Of a DNA stretch of 32,000 bases, positions 8,544 to 28,936 are shown piece after piece (position 1 is the first letter of the stretch; each line of letters starts with the position of its first letter). The notes beneath the pieces are model-generated. The model worked only from the letters and a program-made list of their open reading frames with translations. It did not search any database and was not told the DNA's origin. Source of the stretch: Planctomycetales bacterium. GTDB lineage: Bacteria > 4484-113 > JAFGCY01. Both the position numbers and the translations under genes were made by a program. The DNA lies in NCBI GenBank assembly GCA_022646745.1, contig CP060262.1:3300001-3332000 (forward strand), written 5' to 3'.

Positions 8544-8565
8544 GCTTTCTCCAAGTGACGGCGCG

Positions 8566-9270: not shown

Positions 9271-11294
9271 CGCAACCCCCCGCCGACAGTTGAATGTACT
9301 CTCTCTTCAAGCGCTAATATCTCCGCTTTGATCTCCTCTAGCGGTCGCATAGGCTTGTACTCATAGAAGTGCTTTGCAAACGGAATCTCATAACCAACCT
9401 TGGTCTTTTCGTGATCAATCCACGCGTCTGGAACGTGAGGCAGGACTTCGCGTGCGAAGTACGCATCCACATCTTCCTTCAGCGGTATATTTTCAAAGTC
9501 GCGCAGTTCACTATCCGGCTCAGGTTTGCCCTTGCTGTCAGCACAGACAGCAGCTGTTTCATCGCGCTCGCAGAGGGCTGCAATTAGTCCCTTGCGAAGT
9601 GGGGTGGTGAGCTTTAGTTTCGCAGCCTTGAATGCCGCGTCAAAGTCCTTGGTGAACTCAGCCCGGTCTAACCAGAGCTTGTCACTCTGTATACCTCTAA
9701 GCACTGTGAGAATAGACTGTTGCATACGCTGGCCGGATTCGATCTCGGCCTGCGCCAGCGCGCCTTTTTTGCGCGACTTCGCCAGCCCTAAAAATGCAGT
9801 GCTGGCTTTAAGCACTTCGATCCGCTCAGCCTCTACTCTGAAGTTCAAGCGCAAAGGTCGCTCCACCGTTACGCGCCAATAACCGAAGTCATTGTTGTCG
9901 AAGACCTTACAGAACTTATCTTCTTTGATGTCCCCAAGCAGGATGTCCTCGAATGACCCGTAGATTTGGCCGATTTCCTGAATCTGGCTATCACTGATGT
10001 AGTTGCGCTTATTGCCAAGCGACTTCTTCATCTTCTTGAAGAGGCTAACTGCATTGACCAGTTGCACCTTGCCACGCCGTTCAGGACTCTTGCGGTTCGT
10101 GAGTACCCAGAAGTAAGTGTATATTCCAGTGTTGTAGAAGAGCTGGTCTGGCAGGGCAACGACGGCCTCAAGCCAATCGTTCTCAATAATCCACTTGCGA
10201 ATTTCACTTTCGCCAGAGCCAGCACTGCCGGTGAACAGCGGGCTACCGTTGAAAACAATCGCCAGCCGCGATCCGCCCTTCTCCGGCGACTTCATTTTGG
10301 ACAGCATATGCTGGAGGAATAGAAGCGAGCCATCATTGATGCGTGGTAGGCCAGCTCCAAAGCGTCCGTTCCACCCCTCATCCTCATACTCACCCTTAAC
10401 CTCTTTCTTGATCTTCTTCCACTCCACGCCGAAAGGTGGGTTGGACAGCATGTAGTCGAACTGCGAGTCAGGCAAGCCGTCCTGCGTGAAGCTATTGCCC
10501 CTCTTGATGTTCTCAGATTCGTGTCCCTTAATAATCATGTCCGAGACGCAGACAGCCCAGGACTCATCATTCAGCTCTTGGCCGAACACTTTCAGCGTTG
10601 CGCCGGGGTTCATCCTTCGAACATGTTCTTCAGCGATGGAGAGCATTCCGCCTGTGCCACAAGCAGGGTCGTAAAGTGTGCGCACCGTGCCTGGCTTAAC
10701 AAGCTGGTCGCCGTCGCCGTTGAAGAGCAAGTCCACCATGAGGCGGATAACTTCGCGCGGCGTGAAGTGCTCTCCCGCTGTCTCGTTCGATAGCTCGGAG
10801 AACTTGCGGATCAACTCTTCATAGATGTAGCCCATCTCTTCATTACTGACCTTATCGGGATGAAGGTCAGTCTCAGCGAAGCGCCGCACCACTTGGAATA
10901 GAAGGTTGTGCTCGTCAAGCTGCTGAATCTGCTCATCGAACTTGAAGCGCTCGATAATCTCTCGCGCCCGCTCAGAGAAGCCGTTGATGTAGAGGCGCAG
11001 ATTGGCGGCTAGATTGTTTGGATCGGCGAGCAATTTATCGAAGTCGAACGGGCTGATGTTGTAGAACTCGAATTTCCACTTGCTTCTAACGAACGGAAGG
11101 AAGTCAGAGTACTTGCCCTTGCGCTTATCGTACTCTTCCAACATCGCCGGTTTGTATGGCGCGAGCACGCCATCCAACCGCCGGAGCACGGTCAGCGGCA
11201 AGACTACCTTGCCGTAGTCCGCGCGCTTGTATTCACCCCGGAGAAGCTCCGCGATATCCCATATAAGCTGTACCTTTTCCCTGAAATGAATCAT
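9264..11294 (-). CDS. hsdM: type I R-M N6-adenine DNA methyltransferase subunit
   Basis: 676 aa. AdoMet motif YDPACGTGGML, catalytic LSNPPFGVEW (NPPF), an HsdM-N-like N-terminus, and a long C-terminal extension ending VGYEIPFAKHFYEYKPMRPLEEI. Confidence 0.95.
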   Translation of the reverse strand: MIHFREKVQLIWDIAELLRGEYKRADYGKVVLPLTVLRRLDGVLAPYKPAMLEEYDKRKGKYSDFLPFVRSKWKFEFYNISPFDFDKLLADPNNLAANLRLYINGFSERAREIIERFKFDEQIQQLDEHNLLFQVVRRFAETDLHPDKVSNEEMGYIYEELIRKFSELSNETAGEHFTPREVIRLMVDLLFNGDGDQLVKPGTVRTLYDPACGTGGMLSIAEEHVRRMNPGATLKVFGQELNDESWAVCVSDMIIKGHESENIKRGNSFTQDGLPDSQFDYMLSNPPFGVEWKKIKKEVKGEYEDEGWNGRFGAGLPRINDGSLLFLQHMLSKMKSPEKGGSRLAIVFNGSPLFTGSAGSGESEIRKWIIENDWLEAVVALPDQLFYNTGIYTYFWVLTNRKSPERRGKVQLVNAVSLFKKMKKSLGNKRNYISDSQIQEIGQIYGSFEDILLGDIKEDKFCKVFDNNDFGYWRVTVERPLRLNFRVEAERIEVLKASTAFLGLAKSRKKGALAQAEIESGQRMQQSILTVLRGIQSDKLWLDRAEFTKDFDAAFKAAKLKLTTPLRKGLIAALCERDETAAVCADSKGKPEPDSELRDFENIPLKEDVDAYFAREVLPHVPDAWIDHEKTKVGYEIPFAKHFYEYKPMRPLEEIKAEILALEERVHSTVGGGLRW

Positions 11295-11696: not shown

Positions 11697-12653
11697 TCAC
11701 CTCAGCGCTTCGAGAAGATCAGTCCGCTCGGCATTCGCATATGAACTGACAGGGCTAGTCTCTTCATTGCGCAGGTGAAACAGATCAATTCCGCGAGTCC
11801 AGATGGACTCCAGCACCGTGCCGGGAGCGATGGAATCAGCGGTTGTGAACCAGAATCCGCGCTTGCCTCCAGCTGCCACTGTCTTTTGCGCAATGGACAT
11901 AAGCCTCTTCTCGCTTGGAGTAACTGCTAGCAGTATAGCCCATTGAGAGCGCCAGTCAGCTAGGAGCTTATTGCTCTGGATGTAGTCCCGGTAGACTGCT
12001 ACTTTTTCTGTCCACTGCTTTGTGGACATGGTTCCTCTGTCTACTTCCACGAAGAAAACCCCGTGCTGACTTTCCGCTGGCTGTAGCAAGACAATGGCAT
12101 CGGGGATGACAGACACATCCTGCCGGTGCCCGCGCTTGTCCATTACTTGCACAGTTAGCCGGTGCTTCTTGGGATCACCTCGCAGAACTCTGTAGTCCGC
12201 CAGCTTGCCGGAGTCCTTGGCGGCTTCAAAATCATTGCGGAAGGTGATAAGGATGTCATTAACCGCCAGCAAGTGCTGGACGTGGGTTGGTTGGACATCG
12301 TTGATGTAACGTTTCCATTTAACATCTGACCTTTCGATGTTGTCAGTTTCAGCGATGAGCTTAGCCCCCTTCTCCGTCATTGCGTAAATCATGGAGTCCC
12401 GCGAGGAGGAGACAGGGAGCTTCAACCGCTTCAGGTAGCCATGCTGAAACAACAGCCGGAGCCGGTTGGTCAGGTTCTTCTCACTGGCATCGGGAAACAA
12501 CCACCAGAACTGGTGGGTGCTCAGGAAACGGTAAACGAGGACTACTCTGACTAGTTCCACGTCCCTGGCGGTAAGGTCAAAGCGGGGCGGGCTCTTTGTC
12601 CGCGTAGTTCTAGGTGTCCTCTTTTGGTCAGTCTTTGGTTTACTAGGAGACAT
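11697..12653 (-). CDS. replication-relaxation (Replic_Relax, PF13814-like) family protein
   Basis: 318 aa. N-terminal wHTH-like pattern LTARDVELVRVVLVYRFLSTHQ...RLRLLFQHGYLKR, then HLLAVNDILITF and IPDAIVLL...FFVEVDRGT, as I remember for this family. Confidence 0.6.
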   Translation of the reverse strand: MSPSKPKTDQKRTPRTTRTKSPPRFDLTARDVELVRVVLVYRFLSTHQFWWLFPDASEKNLTNRLRLLFQHGYLKRLKLPVSSSRDSMIYAMTEKGAKLIAETDNIERSDVKWKRYINDVQPTHVQHLLAVNDILITFRNDFEAAKDSGKLADYRVLRGDPKKHRLTVQVMDKRGHRQDVSVIPDAIVLLQPAESQHGVFFVEVDRGTMSTKQWTEKVAVYRDYIQSNKLLADWRSQWAILLAVTPSEKRLMSIAQKTVAAGGKRGFWFTTADSIAPGTVLESIWTRGIDLFHLRNEETSPVSSYANAERTDLLEALR

Positions 12654-12947: not shown

Positions 12948-13943
12948 ATGTCGATCCCAAGGACGGACATAGACCTACTAGTACTGGGAACTGATGTTGA
13001 TCCTCATGTTCAATCGGTACTAGCCCAGTTGCCGGATACCATCAATGTCATGCGATTTGATATTGATAAGTATCCGGTATCTTTTTCTTCAACATACAGT
13101 GTCAATCAGGATGCAGAGAGCTTAATTTTCCAGAATAAGCATCTGTATCAATGTGTAAATAATCACTCTATTGTTTGGTTTAGACGAATCGGAGCGCCTG
13201 GAGTGAGCAAAGAAATTAGAGATCGCTCCTATAGAAAATTTGCTAATGCTGAAACTGAGGCATTCATACTTGGATTGACATCCTTGTTATCAAGTTCTGT
13301 TTGGATAAATCCCTATCTTTCAACAAAATATGCGAATAGTAAATTATTCCAATTACGTAACGCTAGAAATATTGGCCTAAGAATTCCCGCAACATTAGTA
13401 ACTAACTCGCCTGATGAAGTTCGCACTTTTGCCAGTGTCTATCCCAAAATAATATACAAAACATTAAGCTCCCCATCTTTAGAGCAAAACTCTGGTAGAT
13501 CGTTAATATTTTCACACTTGATTTCAGATTCAGATCACGTATTGTTTGATCAAGTTAAATATGCACCTTGCATGTTCCAACAGTACATTGAGAAGGATTA
13601 TGAACTTCGGATTACTTTCGTGGGTGGAAATTTTTACAGTGTGAAAATCTTTTCTCAGGATAGCTCAGATACTAAAATTGACTGGCGAGCAGGTGACTGG
13701 AATCATCATCGATATGAGACAACAAACTTGCCAGAGGCAGTATGCCAACAGCTTTCTTCTTTCATGCAAGTGTTGAATTTGCAATTTGGTGCAATTGACA
13801 TGATAGTAACTCCTAATGGGGAATATGTCTTTCTAGAAGTAAATCCACATGGAGCTTGGCTTTGGCTTGAGCAAGCTACCGACCTTTGTATTTCACTAGC
13901 AATCAGCAATTATATTCAGAGGCTCTGCTCGTTCCGTACATAA
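12948..13943 (+). CDS. microviridin-type (MdnC/MvdD-like) ATP-grasp macrocyclase
   Basis: 331 aa. Motifs matching my memory of MdnC: VWFRR, ANSKLFQLRNARNIGLRIPATLVTNSPDEVRTFA, ELRITFVGG, DWRAG, FGAIDMIVTPNGEYVFLEVNPHGAWLWLE. Confidence 0.8.
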   Translation: MSIPRTDIDLLVLGTDVDPHVQSVLAQLPDTINVMRFDIDKYPVSFSSTYSVNQDAESLIFQNKHLYQCVNNHSIVWFRRIGAPGVSKEIRDRSYRKFANAETEAFILGLTSLLSSSVWINPYLSTKYANSKLFQLRNARNIGLRIPATLVTNSPDEVRTFASVYPKIIYKTLSSPSLEQNSGRSLIFSHLISDSDHVLFDQVKYAPCMFQQYIEKDYELRITFVGGNFYSVKIFSQDSSDTKIDWRAGDWNHHRYETTNLPEAVCQQLSSFMQVLNLQFGAIDMIVTPNGEYVFLEVNPHGAWLWLEQATDLCISLAISNYIQRLCSFRT

Positions 13944-14008: not shown

Positions 14009-14548
14009 GTGAATTCTAACTCTCACAGCCAATCTGAAGTATCTCGGATTAGCATCACTATTATTGAGCTGGCAAACAAAGATCAAGCAATGCGCACCAA
14101 AGCAGTCCAAGATGCGAATCAGTGGGATTCTCGACTTGACATTGTTAACACACACAAATTCAAAAAGCTGCTAAACCAATATGGTTGGCCAAAATTATCA
14201 CTTTTTAGTGTGGAAGTTTGTCGCTCTGCATGGCTGTTGGCTCAGCATGCAGACGAAGATATAAAATTTCAAAAGCAATGTCTTTCAATGATGAAGTCAT
14301 TACCCCAGAAGGAAGTCTTACTCTGGACAACTGCCATGCTAGAAGATCGAATATTAGTATCTGAGGGCAAGGAACAAATTTTTGGAAGCCAGTTTCATAA
14401 AGATTCTAAAACAGGAATGCTTGTTCCTTGGCCAATAGCAAATCCTGAAGAATTGGATTTACGGAGAGCCAAAGTAGGATTGAATGCTTTTGCTGACGAA
14501 TTGCAAATTATACAGAAATTTGCAAAAGCTAAGCCAGCCCGTCCGTAG
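14009..14548 (+). CDS. hypothetical protein, DUF6624-like
   Basis: 179 aa from GTG 14009 (alternative ATG 14090). It resembles the pattern ..GWP......G...AWLL.QHAD.D..FQ..CL..M (here YGWPKLSLFSVEVCRSAWLLAQHADEDIKFQKQCLSMM). Low GC, like the graspetide pair. The family call is from memory only. Confidence 0.45.
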   Translation: MNSNSHSQSEVSRISITIIELANKDQAMRTKAVQDANQWDSRLDIVNTHKFKKLLNQYGWPKLSLFSVEVCRSAWLLAQHADEDIKFQKQCLSMMKSLPQKEVLLWTTAMLEDRILVSEGKEQIFGSQFHKDSKTGMLVPWPIANPEELDLRRAKVGLNAFADELQIIQKFAKAKPARP

Positions 14549-17361: not shown

Positions 17362-18504
17362 TTATATCAATCGAGATTGCGGGACCGATAATCCCAAGTT
17401 CTCCTCGAACATGAACACATCATCAATCAATGTTGACCAACCAAAACTAATCCGCAGAGTCTCTTCCGAAGTCTTGCTATCTATCCCCATTGCTTCCAAC
17501 ACATGACTGACCTTGTTGTTGCAACCCGTACAAGCGCTTCCTAGTCCAACCGAGAATCCACTGCGATCCAGCTCCTTCTGCTTCCTGCGTGCTTTGATGC
17601 CAGGTATTGCAAAGCTGCAAATGTGAGGTGCACGATTTGCATCTATGCCGTGAATGACAATTTGCTGGTCTGATGAGAGGAGGGATGATTCGAATCCTGA
17701 TCGGATGGAATGTAAAAAGTCTGATTTCTCCAAATTCTCTTCTGCTAGCTCGAGAGCTGCAATCATGCCGGCGATTCCGGCAAGATTTTCCGTGCCTGCT
17801 CGGCAACCATGTTCCTGTGGTCCACCACAGATGAGGGATGGCAGGTTATGACCGCGCTGGATGAGCAGGCCGATTCCACGCGGTCCACCGAACTTATGCG
17901 CAGTGCAGGTCAGGAAGTCAATGTCAGGATTGCGTAATGTTTCACTGAAGCCGTTGCCAACGGACTGGACGGCATCACAGTGAACCAGGACTCCATGCTC
18001 ACGGCAGATTTGGGATATCTCCCCTACCGGCTGAACAACTCCGGTCTCATTGTTGACAGCCATCACGGAGACCAGATCAGGTCTATCAGATGTAATTAGC
18101 TTTTCCAGGAATTCCAGCTGAACCACACCGTTGCCATCCACCGGAATGATGGTCTGTCTGCCACCAAGTTGGGTCAGCCGCTCCGCTGCGAGCAACCCAG
18201 CCTTATGCTCCACGGCAGAAATGGCAACATGCACCGGCTTCTTCAGCAACAGAAGGCTACCGATGATCACATGGGAGTTGCCTTCACTGGCTCCACTATT
18301 GAACACAACGTCATTGCCCTTGCAGGCAAAGAATGTCGCAGCCCGGTCATGGAACTGTTCCAGTAGTCTGGCAGCCTTGAAGCCTTCAGCATGCTGGCTG
18401 GAGGGATTGCCCATCAGTGCGGAATCCTCCAGGAATGGCAACATCGCTTCCCTGGCTTCCTGACGCAGGGGCGTGGTGGCAGCGTGATCGAGGTAGATGC
18501 GCAT
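17362..18504 (-). CDS. class V aminotransferase, NifS/IscS-type cysteine desulfurase
   Basis: 380 aa. Starts MRIYLDHAATTP. PLP-lysine context TAHKFGGPRGIG. Catalytic Cys loop GLGSACTG followed by SHVLEAMG, and ETLRISFG near the C-terminus. Confidence 0.9.
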   Translation of the reverse strand: MRIYLDHAATTPLRQEAREAMLPFLEDSALMGNPSSQHAEGFKAARLLEQFHDRAATFFACKGNDVVFNSGASEGNSHVIIGSLLLLKKPVHVAISAVEHKAGLLAAERLTQLGGRQTIIPVDGNGVVQLEFLEKLITSDRPDLVSVMAVNNETGVVQPVGEISQICREHGVLVHCDAVQSVGNGFSETLRNPDIDFLTCTAHKFGGPRGIGLLIQRGHNLPSLICGGPQEHGCRAGTENLAGIAGMIAALELAEENLEKSDFLHSIRSGFESSLLSSDQQIVIHGIDANRAPHICSFAIPGIKARRKQKELDRSGFSVGLGSACTGCNNKVSHVLEAMGIDSKTSEETLRISFGWSTLIDDVFMFEENLGLSVPQSRLI

Positions 18505-18506
18505 AT

Positions 18507-19073
18507 TTACTCACTCGAACCAAACGGATCTGCGGGCTGTGGTACTCCCTGCCCCATGGATGGTCCAATATCCGGTGGGCCAGCTGGTCCCTGCATCCTG
18601 GGTGCGCCGTGATATGGCAGTCTAGGTTGCAGATCCATCAGTGGGTCGCGGTCCTGCTGCTTGCTGGGGTCCATGGCATCCGCTACCCTCATCGGATCAA
18701 CTACGTAACTCACCGAGAACTCTAGCATCTCGCCATATGCCGGACGCGGCCACTTGTCCTCATCTCCATCCAGTCCAGGTGGGATCAGGGGCTGGTCGAT
18801 GTCTTCCAGCTGCTTGAAGACCTGCCTGAGTCCAGCACTCCACAGTTCGTTGAATGCCTTACCCGTCACCTGCCGGTAGTGCGCTGCCAGCACGCGCTTG
18901 AGCGGAGCTTTTCCCTTGCGAAAGCCTGGCACGTCCTTGTCCTTGCGCACGTCGGTTGCCGCCTTATTGAGGGCAAAGTCCACGTCATACGCCCCGACCC
19001 GCAGGTGCAGAATCCGGCTGGACACCCCAAGCCGCTCCAATCTGAACTGCAGTTCGTTGATCTGCATAGCCAC
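18507..19073 (-). CDS. stand-alone trigger-factor N-terminal-domain-like protein with Pro/Gly-rich tail
   Basis: 188 aa. It contains the TF ribosome-binding signature GFRKGKAP in a context alignable to the E. coli Tig N-domain (..VPGFRKGKAPLKRVLAAHYRQV..; ..MLEFSVSYVVDP). The C-terminal ~60 aa are low-complexity P/G/Q. The stop is 2 nt before the desulfurase ATG. The start is GTG 19073 or ATG 19067. Confidence 0.55.
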   Translation of the reverse strand: MAMQINELQFRLERLGVSSRILHLRVGAYDVDFALNKAATDVRKDKDVPGFRKGKAPLKRVLAAHYRQVTGKAFNELWSAGLRQVFKQLEDIDQPLIPPGLDGDEDKWPRPAYGEMLEFSVSYVVDPMRVADAMDPSKQQDRDPLMDLQPRLPYHGAPRMQGPAGPPDIGPSMGQGVPQPADPFGSSE

Positions 19074-19302: not shown

Positions 19303-22300
19303 ATGGCTAATTCGGGGATTGGAATCAAGTCATGGAGGAACTACCACTCCAGCTCACTTTTTTCGGGACAGCGTGCTGACAGGAATACACGGATCTCGAT
19401 TGACACCTATTCCGGCAACCTCAATGTCACTGCCATCGACTGGAACGTTGCTGCCCGCCTGCCTATCTCCATCTCCCGTTCATACAACCATCAGGACAAC
19501 ACCGCCAACCTCGACCGGCCCTTCGGACCTGGCTGGAGCTGGTCATATGACCAGAACCTGTATGGCAGCCTTTCCGGTGGCAGTGGGACTGTCACTTGGA
19601 AAGACGGCTCAGGCAATGAGTGGGAGTTTTCATATGCTTCCACATCCGGTGGCAAGGATCACTACACCTCTCCGGCTGGCATGCACAAGTACGTACTGTC
19701 CCGCGATACTACCAGCGGCGACTTCACGATCAAGATGCTGACCATGGAATGGTCCTTCGTCGTGAACAGCACAGACAGCCTCGCCCGCCTGATGTACATC
19801 CGTGACGCCTTTGGCAATGGCCAGGAGATAGACCGCTCCCTGGATGGCAACTCCGAACCGGAGATGACCATCAACAACATCCAGATCCGTTACCACAACG
19901 GCTCCAGCTGGACCACGCAGGATACCATCACGCCGACTTATGGCAGTGGCCTGATCACCAGGCTGGATGTCAAGTACTGGAACGAGTCCGGATCGACCAC
20001 CAGCACTGCATACAAGATCTACTACTCATACACGAGCATTGATTCCGCAGACCGATTGACCAAGGTAGAGCCCAAGGATTCGTCCGATACGGCCCTCAAC
20101 ATGGAAGTGGAGTACGACTACAACTCCTCCGACGGGCTGGAGATGACGAAGATCTACGACACGGAAGGCAGCAAAGCGGGAACGCCATACTACTGGAGTG
20201 TCAGCTACACCAGTGACAAGGTGACCAGCCTGGTGTTCCCGATTGAAAGTGGAACCACAGGCACCATAGGATTCGACTACTCCCCGACTGCCCCTACCGG
20301 CTGGCCTGGTAGTGGCGCGCTGACCGAAGTGACGGACGCCCGCAGCAACTCCTGGTGGTATGACCATGACACCAGTGGTAGGGTGACATATCAGGCGGAC
20401 CCACTGTGGACTGACACCACACATGAAAGTGAGATCATCACTACCTGGAATTCTGACAATCAGGTAACTGAAGTTGACACCCCCAAGCCCAACAACCTGT
20501 CCGGCCGAATCTCATCCAAGAATTTCTACAACTCGGACAAAAATCTAGAAGTAACACAGGACCAGTACGGCTTCTTGAGATTCTACAAATACGGCAGCCG
20601 CGCCAGTTACGCCACATCCGGCACCGATGCCACCGTTGACGACATCATCGGGATCTTCACCACGATGCCCAACCAGAAAGCATATGCCGACGGGGATTAC
20701 ACATCCAGTGAGACCACCGCACCGTCCAGCCCAGATATTGGTGATGTGAGCTGGGACAACACCAATGGCTACTGGTACTACACGGATGCGGCTGGTTCTC
20801 CCAACACCATCAAGCTGGTTCGGACTGTCAAAGACCCGACCTTTGCCACAGGTACCGGCCAGCTGACTGAGATGTTGTCCTGTTCGCCGGAGAATTTCGG
20901 CGACGGCGGAAACCCGCCAACCTATTCGTTGACCTCATCCTCCGCCTGCAGCAAGCAGGAGTACAATTCCACAACTGGTGACCTGTCCAAGAGCTACACT
21001 CCCCGCCAGTTCCAGGATTCCAGCCTCAAATGGACTGCATTTACGTTTGACCAGCGGTACGGCGTAATGACGGAACAGGAGAATGCGGACAGTCTGGCTG
21101 CTACCGCCAACAAGAAAACCAAGTACACATACAACGACACCCGGACAAAGCAGACAAAGGTGGAGTTGCCGGAAGACAACACGAATCAATGGACTGTGAC
21201 TGTCTATGATGACCGTGAGTTCATTGTCGGAACTCAGAAGCCGGACATCCAGAGCTGGAGTGTCAACCCGCAGGTAGATGTACTGGAGTACGACTACAAT
21301 GGCAACCTGGAGAAGGTCTACCAGGCGGACCCAGTTGCAACCGGCACCAGATGGGATGGAAATACAGCCAATGGCTACTACCACCTGAACACCTTCTACT
21401 ATGACCGCATTAACCGGCAGATCCAGAGCGATGTCCGTGTGGACTGGACTCAGACGGCTTCCGTGGATACTCTGTCAACGTACTACCTCTTTGACGCCAA
21501 CGGCAACCTTGAGCGCGTCAAGGGACCGCAGTACGATGACGGCGGAACTGATTACTACAGCTATACCTTCAGGACATACGACGAGTTGAACCGTGCCGAC
21601 AAGAGCTACCTGACGGAAGCCAGCACCAACTCCAACCTGACCTCACCAAGCGGTGCATATTCCGTGAACACTTACAGTGTCGGCGGTAACGTGGTGAATG
21701 TGACAGATCCCCGCGGTAATGCAACAATTCTGCTGAGTGACTTCCGCGGAGCTGGAGTACAGACCAGCAGGAACTACACGGGTCCCAGCGGCAGTGCCAC
21801 ACAGACCACAAAGCAGCATTTCGGAGCCAATGGCCAGCTGTACTGGAGCCAGAATGGTGAGGGATACAAGATGTACCCCCAGTATGATGATGACAGCCGC
21901 CGGGTATATAACCGGCGCGGTTCTGACACAGGAGACACAGACGAAATTGCATACGATGCCAACAGCAACCAGCTGTACTACTACACCTACCAGGATGTCG
22001 ATGACAGCAAGATCTACCGGGCAAGAAATAAGTACGACTTGATGGATCGGATGGTCAACTCGGGTCGGGAGCAATACACGGGTGGAAGCTGGCAGAACTG
22101 GAACGAGAACACTGCGGATACCACCTTCAACTACAACGGCTGGGTGATCAGGACATACGACAAGGTCAACTCCAGCAAGTATACGGAATCCGTCTATGAC
22201 AACTGGGGCCAGACCACCAAGGTCAAGGCCCCGGAAGTCGCCAACCCGTCCGGGATGGGCACCATCGTATATGAGACTGAAAACACATATGACGTGCTGG

Positions 22301-25300
22301 GTCGCCGCACAAGCATGGATGACCACATGGACAACACGACCAGTTACACCTTTGATGTGCTGGGCCGTGTGATCGAAGTCACGGATGCGGAAAGCTATGA
22401 TGTAAGCACAAAGTATGATGAGCGCGGTATGAAGGCCCAGGTCACCGTGCCTGCCGGTGCCGTGTACAAGTACACATATGATGCACAGGCACGCCTTTCC
22501 CGCCAGCGGGTAACGGCGGACTCCACTGACCGTGACACTGACTACACATATGACAACAACAGCAATGTCACCCAGGTGGATTATCCTGGAGGAGGAATCC
22601 AGAAGAAGTCCTATGATGAACTAAACAGGGCAGTGAAGGAACAGCAACTGCTTTCCGGCACTGACTATCTCGACAAAGACATTGAATACGACGACAACAA
22701 CCGGATGACGAAGCTGACGAATCCGGGGGGATATGAGACGGATTACACATATGACAACCTTGGCAACCTTACACAGATCACCGATCCCAACAGTGACGAC
22801 ACCGATTTCACGTATGACCTTGACAACCGCCGGCTGACCACCACCGGGATGACCGGGCTTGTGATCACCAACACCTACGACTGGAAGATAAGGTCAGCGG
22901 ACAGCATCACATACAAGCTCTCGGCATCCTCCGGTGACGACATCGCCGTCAACTACACGTTCGACGACAATGGACGGATCACGGGGACAGAGGATGGCCG
23001 GGGCAATGACTGGACCAAGGCCTTTGACGCGATGGGTCGCTGCACCAGCCTGACAACACCGAATCCCGGCAGTGGGACATACACATGGACCAAGACCTAT
23101 GACGGGAACAGCAGCATCACGAAGACCGAAGACTTCGCCGGAAACATCCTCTATTACCAGTATGACGGCCTCAGCCGCATGACGGGCTACGGCGAGGACA
23201 GCAATGCCGATGATGTCACATACACATACGCATGCTGCGGCAACGTCACAGCTTATACGGATGCCCAGGGTACTGCCAGCATCAGTCATGACGATCTCGG
23301 CAGGGTTACGAGCTACACGAACAGCCAGGGCAACCAGGTTCAGTACGCATACGATACGGCTGGCCGGATCTCGAGGGTGACCGGTCCGCGGGGTTCAACG
23401 TACCGGACGGATTACACATACAACAAGAACGGCTCGGTTGCGCAGGTTGATGTGTATGCCGGGGGCTCGGCGGAGTCGACGACATACACCTATGACACGA
23501 GCTCAGGTGAACTGACGCAGCGCAACTTCCCGACGGTATCCTCAGCCAACATCAGATCGACATACAGCTACGACAGTGCAGGCAAGCTGCAGTATGAGAC
23601 GCTGACCAAGGAGACGGGATCGACGACCAACATGTACCGGACGGTCTACTCCTCATCCGCGCTGACCTATGGGAACCAGGTTGTCCGTACGGAGCAGCAG
23701 TACCAGCTCGGAACATGGCTGGACCAATCGCGTGTCACATACAAGTGGGACACCATGAAGCGCCAGACTTATGAGGAGCGCGAGGATTACCACCTGGGAT
23801 CGTGGTCGAACCGCTATGACATCAGCCAGGAGTATGACAAGAACGGCAACCGCACGCGGATGCACCGCAATGTGGCCAGCGGGTTCACTTCCAGCTACGG
23901 CCAGGCGATGGACCTGAGCTACACCATGAACGCGGTGAATGCGATGACCCAGATCACGGATGCGGATGATGCGAACTACAATGCGGACGTGACCTGTGAT
24001 GCGAACAACAACATCACGGAGATTGACGAGTCAATTGACAACAACGGTTATGTGAACCACCTGTACAGCTACTTCGACGTGAACAAGTACAACCAGCTCA
24101 CCGCGCAGAGGGACAAGAAATACGTCGCGTCCTCCGGCAAGTGGCAGTGGACCAAGCGCAGCCACAGCTACAACGGGCCCGGCTCGCTCGTGGCAAGCAA
24201 CTACAAGCAGTGGTATGATGGCGACAGCGAACCGGCCGGCAGTGACCTGGAACATGTGTACGAGAGAGGTAAAATGCTGCAGAACTTCGATGGCAGCAGC
24301 ACATATGGAACGGAATGGCGCTGGGCAGGCAGCCTCAATGCTTGGCAGGCAGCTCTGCGCAGCCCGAACGCCGACTCTTCCTCACAGAACGGATACAACC
24401 TGAGCAACAATGCCACGCCGCAGCGGCGAAGCTTCCTCAGTCCCACGTCCGAGGGAGACCAGCGCCACCTATATGGGCAGGGCAAACCCCAGGCCAAGGA
24501 CAGCACCGGCGGAGGTGCAAACTGGTATTTGGGAGTATCCAGTGAACCGACAACGGCCAATCATGCAACCGTGGAATCCAGGCTGTTCTTCCAGGGAACT
24601 GTGACCGCCACGGACATGAGCCGTGCCACAGATGCCCGCGAAGATGGCAGGATCGGAATCACCGGGTCCTCCCAGGCATATGCCGGCAGCTACGGCAGAG
24701 TAACTAGCGAGCCCCTAGGCCGGGATATAAATCCGATGGGCCGTGGTGATGGCAAGGCCTATGTCGGCGGAGCGTTGTCTATGGGTTGGCTGTATCCGGC
24801 AATGCCCATGAATCATGCTCAGTCAGGCAGCGGCTTCAGCTCCAACAACAGCGGTGGCATTGGACTCGGTGGCGGAGGGGGCGGTGGTTGCATGGAGCCA
24901 CCGGAAGGCTATAACAATCAAGGTTGTCAGTTATGTGACCATTACACTAATGAGTGTCACTACATGCCCAATATCTGGCCGCCAAAGGAACCTTGCCCAG
25001 GTTGCACTGCAGAGGAGTGGAACACAGATCCATGTGGATGCAAACGCAAAGTTTGCAGCTGTACTTGCAAAGGTTGCAACGGGGCAAACTGCAAGGTTCC
25101 GGACAATTGTGGTTTGTATGTGCGCTTAGGATGTGGGGAATCAGCAGGAAATTGCATTCCTTCATATTGGGCAGGCAATGGCTGGGAATGCATCTCTAAT
25201 CCGAATCCTTGCGATACTGGCAACGGCACGCCACAGTGTCCTGGTTGTGGAACGGCAAACTGGGGGCCGAATGGACCTGGCGCGGGGAACAAGGGTAATT

Positions 25301-25863
25301 GCGAACATCCAGAATTCTCTTGCTGGGACGACCCTCCATGTAATTGCAAGGCCTATGAGATTCCATCGGGGAAACTGTCTTCTACAAGAGACTACTGCCT
25401 CTGGGCTGCCATGATTACATTTTGCCCGCAAACAGCGAATAGGGTAGGAATTGGCTATTTAGCCCGAGTATTGCGTTGTATCATCTGGGGCGAAACACAA
25501 GATAATCCACGACCTAACGACAAGGGCGACAGTAGCTCGAGAGGGCTATTTCAGGTTATTAAAAAGTGGTGCGATAATGGGGAGTGTACATATGCCTGGT
25601 CAAAGGTGAAACGATTGCTTCCAAGTAATGTCCTTTCAGATCCGAATTGTAAATATGACGACACTTCCAAATGTCACGATATGCACAACGATTGTGATTG
25701 CTTTAACATAGCATGTGGTGTTCATTTGTTTTGTAATTTTGGATTTGACGGAAACCTTAATACAAATCCGAACAACGATGTTTGTACTGCTAAGGGTACA
25801 TATACGTCTATGAATGCAAGAAACTATAATTGCTGCGTGTGTAACATGAGCAAATGGACTTAA
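19303..25863 (+). CDS. RHS/YD-repeat polymorphic toxin with Cys-rich, SLT-like C-terminal module
   Basis: 2186 aa. RHS-type N-terminal region (..GNLNVTAIDWNVAARLPISISRSYN). Dozens of YD repeats (e.g. YTYDNLGNLTQITDPNSDDTDFTYDLDNRRLT). Poly-Gly at 24868-24888, then a 324-aa tail with about 39 Cys. That tail carries GETQDNP...SSRGLFQV...NIACGVHLF, resembling the SLT/VirB1 ES..GLMQ..NI.G motifs. Confidence 0.9.
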   Translation: MANSGIGIKSWRNYHSSSLFSGQRADRNTRISIDTYSGNLNVTAIDWNVAARLPISISRSYNHQDNTANLDRPFGPGWSWSYDQNLYGSLSGGSGTVTWKDGSGNEWEFSYASTSGGKDHYTSPAGMHKYVLSRDTTSGDFTIKMLTMEWSFVVNSTDSLARLMYIRDAFGNGQEIDRSLDGNSEPEMTINNIQIRYHNGSSWTTQDTITPTYGSGLITRLDVKYWNESGSTTSTAYKIYYSYTSIDSADRLTKVEPKDSSDTALNMEVEYDYNSSDGLEMTKIYDTEGSKAGTPYYWSVSYTSDKVTSLVFPIESGTTGTIGFDYSPTAPTGWPGSGALTEVTDARSNSWWYDHDTSGRVTYQADPLWTDTTHESEIITTWNSDNQVTEVDTPKPNNLSGRISSKNFYNSDKNLEVTQDQYGFLRFYKYGSRASYATSGTDATVDDIIGIFTTMPNQKAYADGDYTSSETTAPSSPDIGDVSWDNTNGYWYYTDAAGSPNTIKLVRTVKDPTFATGTGQLTEMLSCSPENFGDGGNPPTYSLTSSSACSKQEYNSTTGDLSKSYTPRQFQDSSLKWTAFTFDQRYGVMTEQENADSLAATANKKTKYTYNDTRTKQTKVELPEDNTNQWTVTVYDDREFIVGTQKPDIQSWSVNPQVDVLEYDYNGNLEKVYQADPVATGTRWDGNTANGYYHLNTFYYDRINRQIQSDVRVDWTQTASVDTLSTYYLFDANGNLERVKGPQYDDGGTDYYSYTFRTYDELNRADKSYLTEASTNSNLTSPSGAYSVNTYSVGGNVVNVTDPRGNATILLSDFRGAGVQTSRNYTGPSGSATQTTKQHFGANGQLYWSQNGEGYKMYPQYDDDSRRVYNRRGSDTGDTDEIAYDANSNQLYYYTYQDVDDSKIYRARNKYDLMDRMVNSGREQYTGGSWQNWNENTADTTFNYNGWVIRTYDKVNSSKYTESVYDNWGQTTKVKAPEVANPSGMGTIVYETENTYDVLGRRTSMDDHMDNTTSYTFDVLGRVIEVTDAESYDVSTKYDERGMKAQVTVPAGAVYKYTYDAQARLSRQRVTADSTDRDTDYTYDNNSNVTQVDYPGGGIQKKSYDELNRAVKEQQLLSGTDYLDKDIEYDDNNRMTKLTNPGGYETDYTYDNLGNLTQITDPNSDDTDFTYDLDNRRLTTTGMTGLVITNTYDWKIRSADSITYKLSASSGDDIAVNYTFDDNGRITGTEDGRGNDWTKAFDAMGRCTSLTTPNPGSGTYTWTKTYDGNSSITKTEDFAGNILYYQYDGLSRMTGYGEDSNADDVTYTYACCGNVTAYTDAQGTASISHDDLGRVTSYTNSQGNQVQYAYDTAGRISRVTGPRGSTYRTDYTYNKNGSVAQVDVYAGGSAESTTYTYDTSSGELTQRNFPTVSSANIRSTYSYDSAGKLQYETLTKETGSTTNMYRTVYSSSALTYGNQVVRTEQQYQLGTWLDQSRVTYKWDTMKRQTYEEREDYHLGSWSNRYDISQEYDKNGNRTRMHRNVASGFTSSYGQAMDLSYTMNAVNAMTQITDADDANYNADVTCDANNNITEIDESIDNNGYVNHLYSYFDVNKYNQLTAQRDKKYVASSGKWQWTKRSHSYNGPGSLVASNYKQWYDGDSEPAGSDLEHVYERGKMLQNFDGSSTYGTEWRWAGSLNAWQAALRSPNADSSSQNGYNLSNNATPQRRSFLSPTSEGDQRHLYGQGKPQAKDSTGGGANWYLGVSSEPTTANHATVESRLFFQGTVTATDMSRATDAREDGRIGITGSSQAYAGSYGRVTSEPLGRDINPMGRGDGKAYVGGALSMGWLYPAMPMNHAQSGSGFSSNNSGGIGLGGGGGGGCMEPPEGYNNQGCQLCDHYTNECHYMPNIWPPKEPCPGCTAEEWNTDPCGCKRKVCSCTCKGCNGANCKVPDNCGLYVRLGCGESAGNCIPSYWAGNGWECISNPNPCDTGNGTPQCPGCGTANWGPNGPGAGNKGNCEHPEFSCWDDPPCNCKAYEIPSGKLSSTRDYCLWAAMITFCPQTANRVGIGYLARVLRCIIWGETQDNPRPNDKGDSSSRGLFQVIKKWCDNGECTYAWSKVKRLLPSNVLSDPNCKYDDTSKCHDMHNDCDCFNIACGVHLFCNFGFDGNLNTNPNNDVCTAKGTYTSMNARNYNCCVCNMSKWT

Positions 25864-25901
25864 ACGTGATTATCATTGTTCAAATCAGTCCATCATGTTT
25901 C

Positions 25902-26639
25902 ATGAAGGTAAGTGCATTGCGGTCATTGATTATAGCTTTAGCAGTGCTGTCTATTTATCCTGAGTTTAGCATTGCAGCAGAAAATTTTGACACAATTATT
26001 TCAACTACTAATTTGAGATGTGATGGAAGTGAGAATTACTGGAATGTGGAGCTTCGACAAGATGACATGGATAGATTTGGTCATCCTAGGAATGTCGAGT
26101 CATCAATTATCTTGTGGGATACATATTTGGTGATCTTTAAAAGTAGTCAACCTAGTGCGATCTTTGGAACTAAACCATTGTCGGAAGCCCCTGTCGAATA
26201 CCAAGACAATGATGTGATCACTCGAATATCCAGCATCCGCAGACTACCTAACATGATTAAAGGAAGCAAGCGCGATTTACTGGCAGTGTTTTTTGATAGA
26301 TTTCATTACAAAGTACTAGACATTACAACGGACGGCATATTAAATACAATTCTTGATGTATCAGTAGAGAACTATGACGAATTATTGCTCTTTGATTGCG
26401 ACGATGACAATATTCTAGATTTAGTTATAAGTTATGGAAATTTAGCCACTTACGATTCTGAAGTTGACGATAAGATTCCATTACCCATCATTATACAAGA
26501 CAAGACTATAAATGTTAGACAATTACCGCCTAGTGTTAACTTGTCTTCTACATATGTAGTATTCAGAATGATGCAACAAGACGATAATGATAGTATTGGT
26601 GTTAGCTTTGATTGCATAGAATTGGAAGACGTAGTCTGA
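25902..26639 (+). CDS. secreted or periplasmic protein, candidate cognate immunity for the RHS tail
   Basis: Track ORF 25854-26639. I prefer ATG 25902, giving MKVSALRSLIIALAVLSIYPEFSIA/AENF (signal-peptide-like). It starts 39 nt after the RHS stop and shares the low GC of the RHS 3' end. No family recognised. Confidence 0.5.
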   Translation: MKVSALRSLIIALAVLSIYPEFSIAAENFDTIISTTNLRCDGSENYWNVELRQDDMDRFGHPRNVESSIILWDTYLVIFKSSQPSAIFGTKPLSEAPVEYQDNDVITRISSIRRLPNMIKGSKRDLLAVFFDRFHYKVLDITTDGILNTILDVSVENYDELLLFDCDDDNILDLVISYGNLATYDSEVDDKIPLPIIIQDKTINVRQLPPSVNLSSTYVVFRMMQQDDNDSIGVSFDCIELEDVV

Positions 26640-26675
26640 TCCAACACCAACACTTTATGCTGCATACTATTGTGG

Positions 26676-26948
26676 TTATGTAGTTGTTCTTGACCTCCCT
26701 CCTTCCATCAGACTAATCACAATGTGGGGAAACCAGCACATCAAACAGCCAGTAATTCCTCCTTCCCTGGTCTGTTTCTTACACCACCTACGTCTGAATT
26801 CCGCGGGACTCAGGTATCCCAATGAGCAGTGCGGACTCTCCATGTTGCAGTTAGGACTCAAATGGTAGATCCTACCGGGTCTCATCCAGGTTGGCAAACA
26901 GCCATTCATTATATTACTGCTCGTGGAAGGTTCCATATAGATTCTCAA
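26676..26948 (-). pseudogene. remnant of an rve-type (IS3/IS481-like) transposase C-terminus
   Basis: The translation contains ...SPHCSLGYLSPAEFRRRW, the conserved (R)PH.SLGY.(S/T)P.EF end of DDE integrase-core transposases. No catalytic core, no credible start and no inverted repeats were seen. Confidence 0.45.
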
Positions 26949-27013
26949 CTAAGCCGTTTTAGTCACTGAATATTCACTAATTTTAGTCTCTGATCCTCCA
27001 GTGCAATTCTCAG

Positions 27014-28654
27014 TCAGTCCCTATCAATAAACCCCAAGCCCTCTACTTCGGGTGGTAACTTGCTAGGATTATTCCTCCTTTCCTTTACTCCTTCAAGATA
27101 GTGGTCAATTGAATCCATCAGGTTCTTCTTTCGCTTTTCTTGTTGATCCTTCAGCTCCTCATGCGGACGGTACTCTACGTTGTAGGGGAAGCTCCGCTTC
27201 GGTGCTATCGGGTTGTCATGCGTCTTGATTAGTTCAGGATGCTCCATTGCTCCCTTGACCATCAGATACGCCTTGCGTTGCTCCAGACGAGAGAGACTAT
27301 GGAACGCTACTTCCCACATCTCAGGTAGCGAGAACTTGTTCATCGGTTCCTGGAGCAAGCCAGCTTCGCGCTGCTCCAGTTGCTTTACGATGTTTGTACT
27401 TTCCTTGGCCAGCCGTTCGGCATCTTGCCTTGCGACCCGGTAGTAAATCTGGGTCTGGCAGTTGCCAAGAATGAGAGCCAGCAGTTTGTCATCCAACTGC
27501 TTGAGAGACTGGTGCGCCATTGTCAGGCAGAGGCCGAACTTCCGGGCTTCTGTAAGAACGGTTGCAAAGCTTTCAGTGGCAATGTTTTGGAACTCGTCGG
27601 CATAGAGGGCAAAGGGACGGCGAGAATCCATGCCACGCGTCAGGAAGCTGGACTCAATGTCTGCCATAAGCATGGCTCCGAATAGGTCAGCACTTAGTCC
27701 TAAACGACCTTTAGCCAGATTGACCAGCAAGATTCCACCACTGTCCATAATCTCTCGGATGTTGAATCCACTCTCGACCTGCCCTAGCCTTGCCCCGATG
27801 CGAGGGTCAGCCAGGAAGGCCGATACCTTGTTCAGGCTACTTTCGATGAACATCGTTCGCTCTTTGCTGTTCCAGACATTGTACCGGCCATAGAAGAAGT
27901 CCTTGGTCGTGTCAGTGCTGGTCTCGGCTAACAGCATTTCGCGGAAGTCAGCATCCACCAGGACTTGCTCGAACTGGTGCAAGGTTAGATTGTGCTCGAT
28001 GAGGAGCGCCAAGGTGTGCCGAAGGATGTCTTCCATCCTTGCGCCCCAGCTGTCTTCCCAAACACGCTTGAAGGCCAACAGTAGTCTTGCAACCTGCTCT
28101 GCAATTGGAACGCCTTCTCGGCGCTGCAGTGGATTGTATGGAAGCATGTGCTCCATATCCGCCAGGTCGAGGAGCACGGCCTGCTCCCGGCGCTCGTTAA
28201 GGTGCGGAATACTGTCCGTGATCAGATCCCCGTGCGGGTCAATTACACAAAAGCCCATTCCGCTGGCAATGTCCTGTACGATGAAATTCATCAGCAAGGA
28301 AGACTTGCCAGCCCCTGAGGCACCGACCACATACATGTGAGTGGAGCGGAAATCGCCTGGGAGCATAAGGGTATTGGCAAACCCAGAACTCTTGGTATCG
28401 CCAATTGCCAACGAATACTCACCATACAGTTCATCTGGAGTATGGTTTTGCAGAATCCATAGCGCCTCGGCATTGGCAGCATTGGCAAGGTCTCGCACCT
28501 TGAGAAAGCCGGTCGTGTAATCCTCCATGTGATACATGAAGCCGGTCAGTGAGGCGCGAATTCCCCAGATGATTCCAACGGCTACTGCAATCTCCAGCAT
28601 CCATACCAGAAGACTAAGCACTATGTTCAGAACGATATTTAATTCTGGAAACAT
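27014..28654 (-). CDS. membrane-anchored FtsK/HerA-superfamily P-loop ATPase, TraD/VirD4 (type IV coupling protein)-like
   Basis: 546 aa. N-terminal TM segments. Walker A VVGASGAGKSS followed by FCVIDPHGDL. Walker B FALYADEFQN. ARKFGLCLTMAHQSLKQL is typical of the TraG/TraD C-terminal module. Confidence 0.65.
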   Translation of the reverse strand: MFPELNIVLNIVLSLLVWMLEIAVAVGIIWGIRASLTGFMYHMEDYTTGFLKVRDLANAANAEALWILQNHTPDELYGEYSLAIGDTKSSGFANTLMLPGDFRSTHMYVVGASGAGKSSLLMNFIVQDIASGMGFCVIDPHGDLITDSIPHLNERREQAVLLDLADMEHMLPYNPLQRREGVPIAEQVARLLLAFKRVWEDSWGARMEDILRHTLALLIEHNLTLHQFEQVLVDADFREMLLAETSTDTTKDFFYGRYNVWNSKERTMFIESSLNKVSAFLADPRIGARLGQVESGFNIREIMDSGGILLVNLAKGRLGLSADLFGAMLMADIESSFLTRGMDSRRPFALYADEFQNIATESFATVLTEARKFGLCLTMAHQSLKQLDDKLLALILGNCQTQIYYRVARQDAERLAKESTNIVKQLEQREAGLLQEPMNKFSLPEMWEVAFHSLSRLEQRKAYLMVKGAMEHPELIKTHDNPIAPKRSFPYNVEYRPHEELKDQQEKRKKNLMDSIDHYLEGVKERRNNPSKLPPEVEGLGFIDRD

Positions 28655-28714: not shown

Positions 28715-28936
28715 CTACTTGTCCAGCTTCACGCCAGCGACGATATCGGCAAGTTCACATCCCAAGGCAGAACACAGGCGTGCCATGGTTTGAAGAGAGA
28801 TGTTGACCTTACCCAGCTCAATGTCGCTCAGGTGGTGGCGCTCGATGCCACTGGCCTCAGACAGCGCCGCCTGGGACATCTTCTTGCGCGTCCTCACCAC
28901 CCGGATATTCATCCCCACCTGTTCAGCCACACTCAT
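28715..28936 (-). CDS. XRE/Cro-CI family helix-turn-helix regulator
   Basis: 73 aa. NIRVVRTRKKMSQAALSEASGIERHHLSDIELGKVNISLQTMARLCSALG is a canonical HTH_3 pattern. It lies 60 nt upstream of, and co-oriented with, the ATPase. Confidence 0.8.
   Translation of the reverse strand: MSVAEQVGMNIRVVRTRKKMSQAALSEASGIERHHLSDIELGKVNISLQTMARLCSALGCELADIVAGVKLDK

Follow-up and report, generated by a model that had tools for sequence, protein, structure and literature searches.

Genomic locus and layout of the RHS gene

The window analysed here is a stretch of 32,000 nucleotides (nt) from a Planctomycetales bacterium (assembly GCA_022646745.1, contig CP060262.1, positions 3,300,001 to 3,332,000 of the forward strand). 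It contains a long RHS/YD-repeat gene whose product, UNM07828.1, carries a cysteine-rich tail ending in a domain that, judged from its sequence, is likely to be related to the lysozyme superfamily. An exact match in the protein collection gives this product as 'MAG: RHS repeat protein [Planctomycetales bacterium]', MAG standing for metagenome-assembled genome; the contig that carries it measures 4.1 Mb. Pfam recognises eight RHS_repeat stretches (E 3.9e-26) and a DUF6531 domain at aa 33-109 (E 1.5e-11), NCBIfam adds YD repeats (TIGR01643, E 1.4e-21) and a partial RHS_core match, and ten YDxxG motifs are present. At the N-terminus, DUF6531 is the only Pfam domain, and no signal-peptide-like stretch is seen in the N-terminal sequence.

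A search with aa 1401-2186 of UNM07828.1 collected 37 relatives, for which BLAST coverage stops at query position 449-458, corresponding to aa 1849-1858. In P0001-P0036 the core ends with the consensus SRATDxREKGRIGIFGSxxSYAGSxGRVTSExxGRD[ILV]NP[LMF]GRGxG...GxGNS[VI]NN, of which the boundary motif G-x-G-N-S-[VI]-N-N reads GFSSNN in the window. Behind this boundary a Cys or Gly run often follows within 0-2 residues in these relatives, with Gly runs at the position equivalent to the GLGGGGGGG linker in P0010, P0014, P0016, P0021, P0032 and P0036. Past it, the tails of the relatives are either unrelated or alike only in one cysteine-rich module (module I, see below). Based on the repeats, the sharp boundary and the 37 relatives, the proposal of the initial annotation, in which an RHS/YD-repeat protein carries this region as its variable C-terminal cargo, is supported. 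The cargo is 337 aa long: the Gly linker comes first, then a clade-wide Cys adaptor, then the CPGC/Gly-rich junction, and last the terminal domain, which is Cys-rich (Table 1).

Table 1. Positions, strands and characteristics of the features at the RHS locus (coordinates in the window)
Feature	Position	Strand	Details
RHS/YD-repeat polymorphic toxin gene	19303-25863	+	2186 aa; UNM07828.1; open reading frame listing, Pfam/NCBIfam, exact protein match
Conserved RHS core end	24718-24849	+	GRDINPMGRGDG (aa 1806-1817) ... GFSSNN (aa 1844-1849); alignment of core ends
GLGGGGGGG linker, start of the variable tail	24862-24888	+	aa 1854-1862
Cys-rich module I, reusable 'pre-toxin' adaptor	24973-25230	+	aa 1891-1976; BLASTP, MAFFT of nine modules
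Terminal Cys-rich domain	25210-25860	+	aa 1970-2186; common to P0038/L001; lysozyme-like part about aa 2032-2186
Second CPGC and Gly/Asn/Pro-rich linker	25237-25299	+	CPGC at aa 1979-1982; linker GTANWGPNGPGAGNKGN
Lysozyme-superfamily catalytic-core segment (putative)	25453-25569	+	GYLARVLRCIIWGETQDNPRPNDKGDSSSRGLFQVIKKW; aa 2051-2089; candidate catalytic Glu2064 25492-25494, GLFQV 25543-25557
FNIACGV	25702-25722	+	aa 2134-2140; YNIVCGV in the homologue; N, I, C, G and V invariant
Candidate immunity gene	25854-26639	+	UNM07829.1; annotated start overlaps the RHS stop codon; GC 0.32-0.43
Type IV secretion system (T4SS) coupling-protein-like ATPase gene	27014-28654	-	Pfam TrwB_AAD_bind and TraG-D_C; right edge of the cassette, not part of the toxin

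The terminal domain and its single homologue

A phmmer search with the tail against 1.84 billion representative proteins returned one match, P0038 (E 1.6e-10; E 2e-20 by BLASTP). A word-indexed search of 5.8 billion proteins gave no homologue of the tail, and a two-sequence profile retrieved P0038 alone again. In JGI metagenomes, back-translated peptides and the degenerate pattern VLRC[IV][IM][WF]GE[ST] yielded only five chance matches with stop codons, the terminal domain was found neither in viral contigs, phages and plasmids (tblastn) nor in plasmids (blastn), and it is absent from all 37 related tails. P0038 lies on a metagenomic contig of 1272 bp (L001), where its frame is open to the contig start and Cys-rich upstream. 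P0038, too, therefore forms the end of a longer protein.

The window domain and the open reading frame (ORF) of L001 align over 217 aa with 32% identity (30-36% across alignments). Eighteen of 22 cysteines are invariant between the two, which we count, from the alignment, in favour of a structural role. The invariant positions other than these include those in VLRC, GE, GLFQ, YxWSKV, NIxCGV and YxCCxC. The residue behind Glu2064 is Thr in the window, with GLFQV further on; the homologue has Ser and GLFQI at these places. The signature Glu-(Ser/Thr)...GLFQ(I/V)...NIxCGV, on which the initial annotation had based a comparison with family-1 lytic transglycosylases, is thus kept in the sole homologue. 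Its strings lie where they had been placed (WGETQ at 25486-25500, GLFQV at 25543-25557, CFNIACGVHLF at 25699-25731), as does the codon of Glu2064. The FNIACGV stretch may correspond to 'NIxxGxxYL' of SLT domains or to 'CNIPC' of C-type lysozymes: the GH23 hidden Markov model (HMM) aligns its equivalent in the L001 ORF, and extended and global hhalign runs place it differently. An alignment by eye to full-length hen lysozyme (CFNIAC as CNIPC, ARNYNCC as WRNRC) was dropped, as hhalign picks another register for the second half.

Comparison to lysozyme and lytic transglycosylase families

The only Pfam matches of P0038 are SLT (PF01464; E 1.1e-3, 19.0 bits over 30 residues, gathering score 21.3) and C-type lysozyme (Lys, PF00062; E 4.9e-3, 17.5 bits over 61 residues, gathering score 27), both members of the lysozyme clan. 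The L001 ORF matches SLT with E 2.6e-3 (17.8 bits, same gathering score), and the window sequence itself has no match to SLT at E<=10 and none to Lys. A profile of the two sequences (A1) has horse milk lysozyme (2eql) as its best PDB match (E 1.4e-3), in an alignment that covers C30, E35-S-N-F-N, D52-x-G-L-F-Q and W-C64. Here P0038 reads ESNFNER...ND-L-GLFQI and lysozyme ESNFNTR...SD-Y-GLFQL.

Two small family profiles were built, one of four C-type lysozymes (A3) and one of the GH23 members Slt70, MltE, VirB1 and goose lysozyme (A4), and each was checked to retrieve its own family from the PDB. With hhalign, the window+L001 pair (A2) aligns to A3 with 59% probability (P 9e-5) over 39 columns, in which aa 2051-2089 correspond to residues 22-62 of hen egg-white lysozyme. 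Across runs the probability for the C-type profile is 59-62% (P about 8e-5), which is below conventional cut-offs; for A4 it is 2.5% (P 0.019). The window domain scores 6.5 bits against A3, reached by 12 of 5000 shuffles, and 0.3 bits against A4, reached by 109 of 5000. The L001 ORF scores 14.0 and 8.8 bits, respectively, and none of 5000 shuffles reaches either value. When cysteines are masked, the window domain retains 4.1 bits against A3 (10/3000 shuffles) and 0.2 bits against A4 (95/3000), and the L001 ORF 5.4 and 7.8 bits (0/3000 for both). The choice of GH22 over GH23 is not robust, because much of the preference for GH22 consists of cysteine matches. The equivalents of C30 and C64 align and are conserved in both homologues, and the other positions of the four C-type disulfides (C6-C127, C30-C115, C64-C80, C76-C94) hang on the ambiguous register. 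As to the claimed SLT motif set, the strings are present and the similarity to lysozyme/SLT profiles is above chance, but it is weak for the window's own sequence.

As described for family-1 lytic transglycosylases, the E-S pair is 'invariable' (PMC7511926). At the position of the C-type Asp52, the window has Ser (SS-R-GLFQ) and P0038 has Asp (ND-L-GLFQ). An acidic residue is conserved 7-9 positions past the Glu, namely Asp2073 in the window and a Glu in P0038. A Ser at the Asp52 position is compatible with a transglycosylase that uses one acid or, alternatively, with a second acid that is displaced; going by the aligned residues, Asp2073 could take that role, for which goose-type lysozyme and DslA give examples (PMC7511926).

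AlphaFold2 modelling of the window domain together with P0038 gave a predicted local distance difference test (pLDDT) of 58 and a predicted TM-score (pTM) of 0.64; with P0038 as the first sequence, the pLDDT was 38.6. In the better model, which is of low confidence, Glu2064 lies two residues past a helix end, as in lysozymes. The initial annotation had held that its reading would fall if no lysozyme-like fold were predicted; the two models made are too poor to apply this.

Cysteine-rich tips and a shared adaptor across the clade

As counted in the initial annotation, the 324 aa after GLGGGGGGG contain 39 Cys (12.04%), of which aa 1863-2015 account for 24 and aa 2032-2180 for 15. In its first 1853 aa, UNM07828.1 has six (0.3%), and 12 other ORFs of the window, pooled, have 0.89% Cys. 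The quoted Cys-region strings were all located (CGCKRKVCSCTCKGCNGANC at 25033-25092, PCPGCTAEEW at 24991-25020, QCPGCGTANW at 25234-25263), and position 24868, given there as the start of GLGGGGGGG, is the first base of the pure G run inside the linker. Seven further assemblies, independent and derived from different samples (L004-L010), have exactly this tail together with the same downstream ORF, therefore the sequence is real and not an assembly artefact.

The cysteine density had been regarded as peculiar to this protein, but it turns out to be a trait common to all 37 relatives sharing the RHS core. Their tails are Cys-rich and hypervariable, with 9-41 Cys in the last 330 aa (3-12.5%). 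The window tail, at 11.6-12%, is at the upper end of this range, close to P0005 (12.3%) and P0023 (12.5%). An HExxH motif, often followed by C-D-C, is present in the tails of at least nine relatives, and long hydrophobic stretches are found in others. HE[LVWM]xH tips, many with C-D-C and ending in CC-x-C, are seen in P0004, P0005, P0006, P0009, P0017, P0020, P0022, P0023, P0035 and P0036, and related HExxH-type tips lie at 10001-12394 of contig L002 and at about 4700-5650 of contig L003. From their motifs these sister tips appear to be a Cys-rich, zincin-like toxin family; no Pfam domain was recorded for these tails. The genomes of the relatives carry several truncated C-terminal copies each beside insertion sequence (IS) elements, typical of rhs 'orphan' cassettes.

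Module I opens with the first CPGC (24994-25005). A MAFFT alignment of nine modules gives the core C-[TS]-x-E-E-[WCF]-x-x-D-P-x-x-C-x4-C-x-C-x3-G-C (aa 1901-1925, nt 25003-25077), which reads CTAEEWNTDPCGCKRKVCSCTCKGC in the window. In BLASTP against the tails of the relatives, module I matches P0023 (E 1e-8), P0005 (1.6e-5) and P0035 (4e-4), and more weakly P0004, P0007 and P0014; it has no match in Pfam, PHROG or the PDB. The three significant relatives and the weaker P0004 end in HExxH domains, not in the lysozyme-like domain. Module I therefore is independent of the toxin type, and its behaviour resembles that of the 'pre-toxin domains' described for polymorphic toxins (PMC3482391).

An internal duplication with a CPGC..W motif had also been proposed. 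The strings exist, but when the two halves of the Cys module are aligned locally, the top score is 46, a value reached by 20% of shuffles, and there is no meaningful DNA repeat; a true duplication was therefore rejected. Two CPGC copies in the window tail have a probability of about 0.001 by composition, and 38 family tails together contain six copies versus 0.55 expected, a number reached by none of 2000 shuffles. CPGC inside Gly-rich linkers also occurs in P0004, P0013 and P0032, and from this recurrence the second CPGC with its linker looks like a recurrent junction ahead of the last domain.

Downstream gene, cassette exchange and neighbouring genes

The gene directly behind the RHS gene encodes UNM07829.1, which has no Pfam, NCBIfam or PHROG family and always accompanies the identical tail in the seven other assemblies. 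According to the translation, its likely start is an internal Met at 25902, from which the protein begins with MKVSALRSLIIALAVLSIYPEFSIA, a Sec-type signal peptide, and continues with AE. Judged by this start and its position, UNM07829.1 is a probable exported immunity protein. A signal peptide on the product of the next gene is expected for, and therefore fits, immunity against a toxin that acts in the periplasm. Downstream ORFs begin with export or anchor signals at four loci: a signal peptide in the window, a lipobox (LLNGC) in L001, and transmembrane anchors in L002 and L003. The products of window 25902-26639 and L001 571-1257 are of similar length and carry export signals. By eye, each also has D-x-D-x-D...L-[DE]-[LV]-V, placed at about the same relative point of the chain, and the two may be homologues that have diverged very far. 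The L001 downstream protein has a weak FG-GAP_3 match (E 3.5e-3).

The T4SS coupling protein (T4CP)-like gene at the right edge is 93% identical at the amino acid level and 88% at the nucleotide level to that of MAG AC1.30 (L003), where the copy, at 6536-7618, is truncated. The adjacent RHS tip of L003 (HEVMH type) and its downstream ORF are unrelated to those of the window, and nucleotide identity in the RHS core is only about 70%. A T4CP flank of 93% protein identity next to an unrelated tip and ORF indicates, therefore, that 24752-27014 is an exchanged tip-plus-partner cassette, and such a swap is a hallmark of polymorphic toxins. The core has a GC content of 0.57-0.66, which drops to about 0.49 at 24880-25540 and to 0.33-0.40 at 25540-26680. 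A clean recombination breakpoint at the CPGC linker was rejected in view of the two GC steps, at about 24880 and about 25540, the second of which is inside the domain. This second step starts near GLFQV in the lysozyme-like domain, where the compositional boundary is not the domain boundary.

Further genes of the window encode a type I restriction-modification system (HsdR, HsdS, HsdM), a Replic_Relax relaxase-like protein and a Cro/C1 helix-turn-helix protein (5529-11294, 11697-12653 and 28715-28936, all on the minus strand), and with these and the T4CP-like gene as neighbours, the RHS locus appears to lie in or beside an integrated mobile element. An ATP-grasp protein with an MvdD-type pre-ATP-grasp domain (12948-13943, plus strand; Pfam 6.3e-10) adjoins a DUF6624 protein (14009-14548, plus strand), a pair that may be a locus for peptide maturation of the graspetide/microviridin type. 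Upstream of the RHS gene, and divergent from it, are genes for a class-V aminotransferase and for a short protein with a trigger-factor N domain (17362-19073, minus strand). A class-V aminotransferase is also found beside RHS fragments in the unrelated 2.4-Mb contig L002 (6829-8788), and this proximity may be coincidence or conserved synteny.

Proposed function and alternative explanations

With moderate confidence, we favour the reading that UNM07828.1 is a polymorphic RHS toxin whose tip is an orphan, probably disulfide-rich, lysozyme-like peptidoglycan glycosidase, encoded next to a probable exported immunity protein. This is a reading at the level of the superfamily: the earlier proposal of a peptidoglycan-cleaving cargo is supported in part, as far as a probable lysozyme-like core is concerned, but not in its identification as a family-1 transglycosylase. 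Glu2064 would be the general acid of a GH22/GH23-like core, and either a hydrolase (lysozyme) or a lytic transglycosylase fits the sequence of the window protein. The cargo would be carried within the RHS shell, reduced or metal-bound in the cytoplasm. Enclosure of the cargo in a shell is known from solved Rhs/TcC structures. Once freed outside the cytoplasm of the producer, the cargo would fold oxidatively and might then cut the glycan strands of the peptidoglycan of a competitor, and the downstream signal-peptide protein would shield the producer's own periplasm. A precedent for the oxidative folding is given by type VI secretion system (T6SS) effectors that require DsbA in the target cell (PMC5792426), and T6SS lysozyme-like effectors are a precedent for a lysozyme-type interbacterial toxin (PMC9796082).

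Several points weigh against this reading. The window domain matches nothing in Pfam, NCBIfam, PHROG or the PDB at permissive thresholds, and all profile evidence is sub-threshold and limited to about 40 residues, beyond which the register is ambiguous. Its motif is E-T and not the E-S called invariable, and the window protein has no second catalytic acid at the C-type position. Both AlphaFold models are poor; Foldseek gave zero PDB matches, nothing below E 2.8 in BFVD and no lysozyme or SLT. Since the models are poor, these blanks are not evidence against a lysozyme fold. A homology of the two candidate immunity proteins of the window and L001 was dropped (BLASTP E 0.57). Among the window ORFs scanned, there is no secretion signal, PAAR or VgrG domain, T6SS gene or toxin complex (Tc) gene. 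The canonical Rhs aspartyl autoprotease motif (PxxxxDPxGL) is absent from UNM07828.1, in which a regular expression finds no DPxG[LWMI], and the clade carries GRD[ILV]NP[LMF]GRG and GNSVNN where DPxGL would be expected; release of the cargo is therefore only assumed.

The alternative that survives best, though we regard it as unlikely, is that the lysozyme-like motif is coincidental, the tip being a non-enzymatic, disulfide-knotted or zinc-binding Cys-rich module (receptor-binding, adhesive or pore-forming) or a toxin of unrelated activity. The blank family and structure searches with the window's own sequence, the shortness of the likeness and the ease with which Cys-rich sequences spuriously match other Cys-rich families all suit it. 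However, the signal survives masking of the cysteines, the sole matches of the homologue are two independent Pfam families of one clan, and the matching Glu and GLFQ are exactly residues that are invariant between homologues at 32% identity.

We find it rather improbable that the animal C-type (GH22) lysozymes have a true bacterial relative in the last domain, which would then be a hydrolase with their Cys30, Cys64 and other disulfide positions. The horse milk lysozyme match, the nearly literal P0038 motif, the Lys match, the hhalign result and the conserved C30 and C64 positions speak for it. Against this, the Lys score stays under the gathering threshold and leans on Cys-Cys matches (for L001, the drop from 14.0 to 5.4 bits against the C-type profile upon masking), the window protein lacks an Asp52 equivalent, the C-terminal half has no unambiguous alignment, and the lysozyme profile comes from four sequences, though it is PDB-validated.

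We hold it to be just as improbable that the domain is a strict family-1 lytic transglycosylase (Pfam SLT/GH23, Slt70- or VirB1-like), with a single Glu and 1,6-anhydro-N-acetylmuramic acid ends: SLT is matched by P0038 and the L001 ORF, the GH23 HMM aligns ES, GLFQ and NIxxG..Y in L001 above all shuffles and outscores the C-type profile once cysteines are masked, and the Ser of the window suits a one-acid mechanism (PMC7511926), but both SLT scores are under the gathering threshold over only 30 residues, the window has no SLT match and only 0.3 bits against the GH23 HMM (reached by 109 of 5000 shuffles), the hhalign probability is 2.5%, the homologue retains Asp at the C-type position, and the AYNxG motif, expected together with a C-terminal Tyr, is absent, the region reading ARNYNCCVC in the window and TKKYACCIC in the homologue and not being aligned by the GH23 HMM. 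The family-1 SLT/VirB1 membership proposed initially is thus not upheld.

Comparison with known systems

A framework for Rhs/YD-repeat polymorphic toxins (T6SS Rhs effectors, TcB-TcC, WapA) is given by Zhang et al. (2012; PMC3482391). As in these toxins, the window has a long YD-repeat shell, a sharp boundary between conserved and variable parts, and a C-terminal toxin that is hypervariable and has a small gene right behind it. Tips and their downstream genes are likewise swapped as cassettes at one locus, and relatives have truncated 'orphan' C-terminal copies beside IS elements. Unlike in these toxins, the core of the clade ends in GRDINPxGRG ... GNSVNN with no DPxGL, the searches at the window yielded neither PAAR nor VgrG, no signal peptide and no T6SS neighbourhood, every tip of the clade is Cys-rich (3-12.5%), and a shared Cys-rich adaptor stands ahead of different toxins. 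In a term search of the 2012 toxin catalogue, the sole lysozyme-fold toxin domain to turn up was Tox-Glucosaminidase (PMC3482391).

T6SS effectors that are peptidoglycan glycoside hydrolases and are paired with periplasmic immunity proteins are known as the Tge/Tse3 type. Like these and a lysozyme-like effector of Pantoea (PMC9796082), the window tip is a probable interbacterial toxin of the lysozyme superfamily with an exported protein encoded alongside. Unlike them, it has no detectable sequence relationship to those effectors, 15 Cys in about 155 aa and a single homologue, and it is fused to an RHS shell where stand-alone effectors are loaded on Hcp or VgrG.

With GH23 (SLT, PF01464; Slt70, MltE, VirB1; goose-type lysozyme), the domain shares Glu-Ser/Thr, G-L-(M/F)-Q-(I/V) 15-17 residues further on and N-I-x-x-G; unlike GH23, it falls below the Pfam threshold (undetected, for the window), lacks AYNxG and is Cys-rich, which SLT domains are not. 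With GH22 (PF00062, C-type lysozyme/alpha-lactalbumin), the likeness is a nearly literal C-x4-E-S-x-F-N...D-x-G-L-F-Q-I...W-C in P0038; both are small, disulfide-rich and extracellular, properties that are presumed for the window domain. Unlike GH22, it is again below the Pfam threshold, the window has E-T and a Ser for Asp52, the second half cannot be aligned, and there are 15 Cys versus 8. GH22 lysozymes are listed only among animal lineages in the one source consulted (PMC12855814), and the window domain is bacterial. The same source describes the origin of animal lysozymes as elusive (PMC12855814).

Significance

As far as they are known, the cargoes described for Rhs effectors are mostly enzymes that act in the cytoplasm and are thought to travel unfolded in the shell. 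A limited check of the literature met no earlier description of Cys-rich Rhs tips. RHS polymorphic toxins (PMC3482391) and peptidoglycan glycosidase effectors with periplasmic immunity (PMC9796082) are already known. Apparently new are a lysozyme-like orphan domain, dense in Cys and known from two sequences, its attachment to an RHS shell and, at the level of the clade, the Cys-rich tips, the shared Cys adaptor, the CPGC junction and the non-canonical core end. The protein is a rare form of an already known bacterial weapon and not a new kind of system.

It is very unlikely that the clade represents a distinct delivery class, in which all cargoes are disulfide-rich, act outside the cytoplasm and are delivered via the Cys adaptor and CPGC junction, with a true bacterial GH22-type tip. 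If the GH22-type tip were true, it would be a candidate for a kind of bacterial toxin domain ancestral to the animal C-type lysozymes. If, on the other hand, the motif match is coincidental, what remains is an undescribed family of Cys-rich RHS cargoes, of modest general interest. The clade raises the question of how a cysteine-dense cargo is kept in a cage that is produced in the cytoplasm, and how it becomes active outside. By sequence, the terminal domain is intermediate between SLT and the C-type lysozymes; it could represent a muramidase family of its own and possibly connect the animal lysozymes to bacteria.

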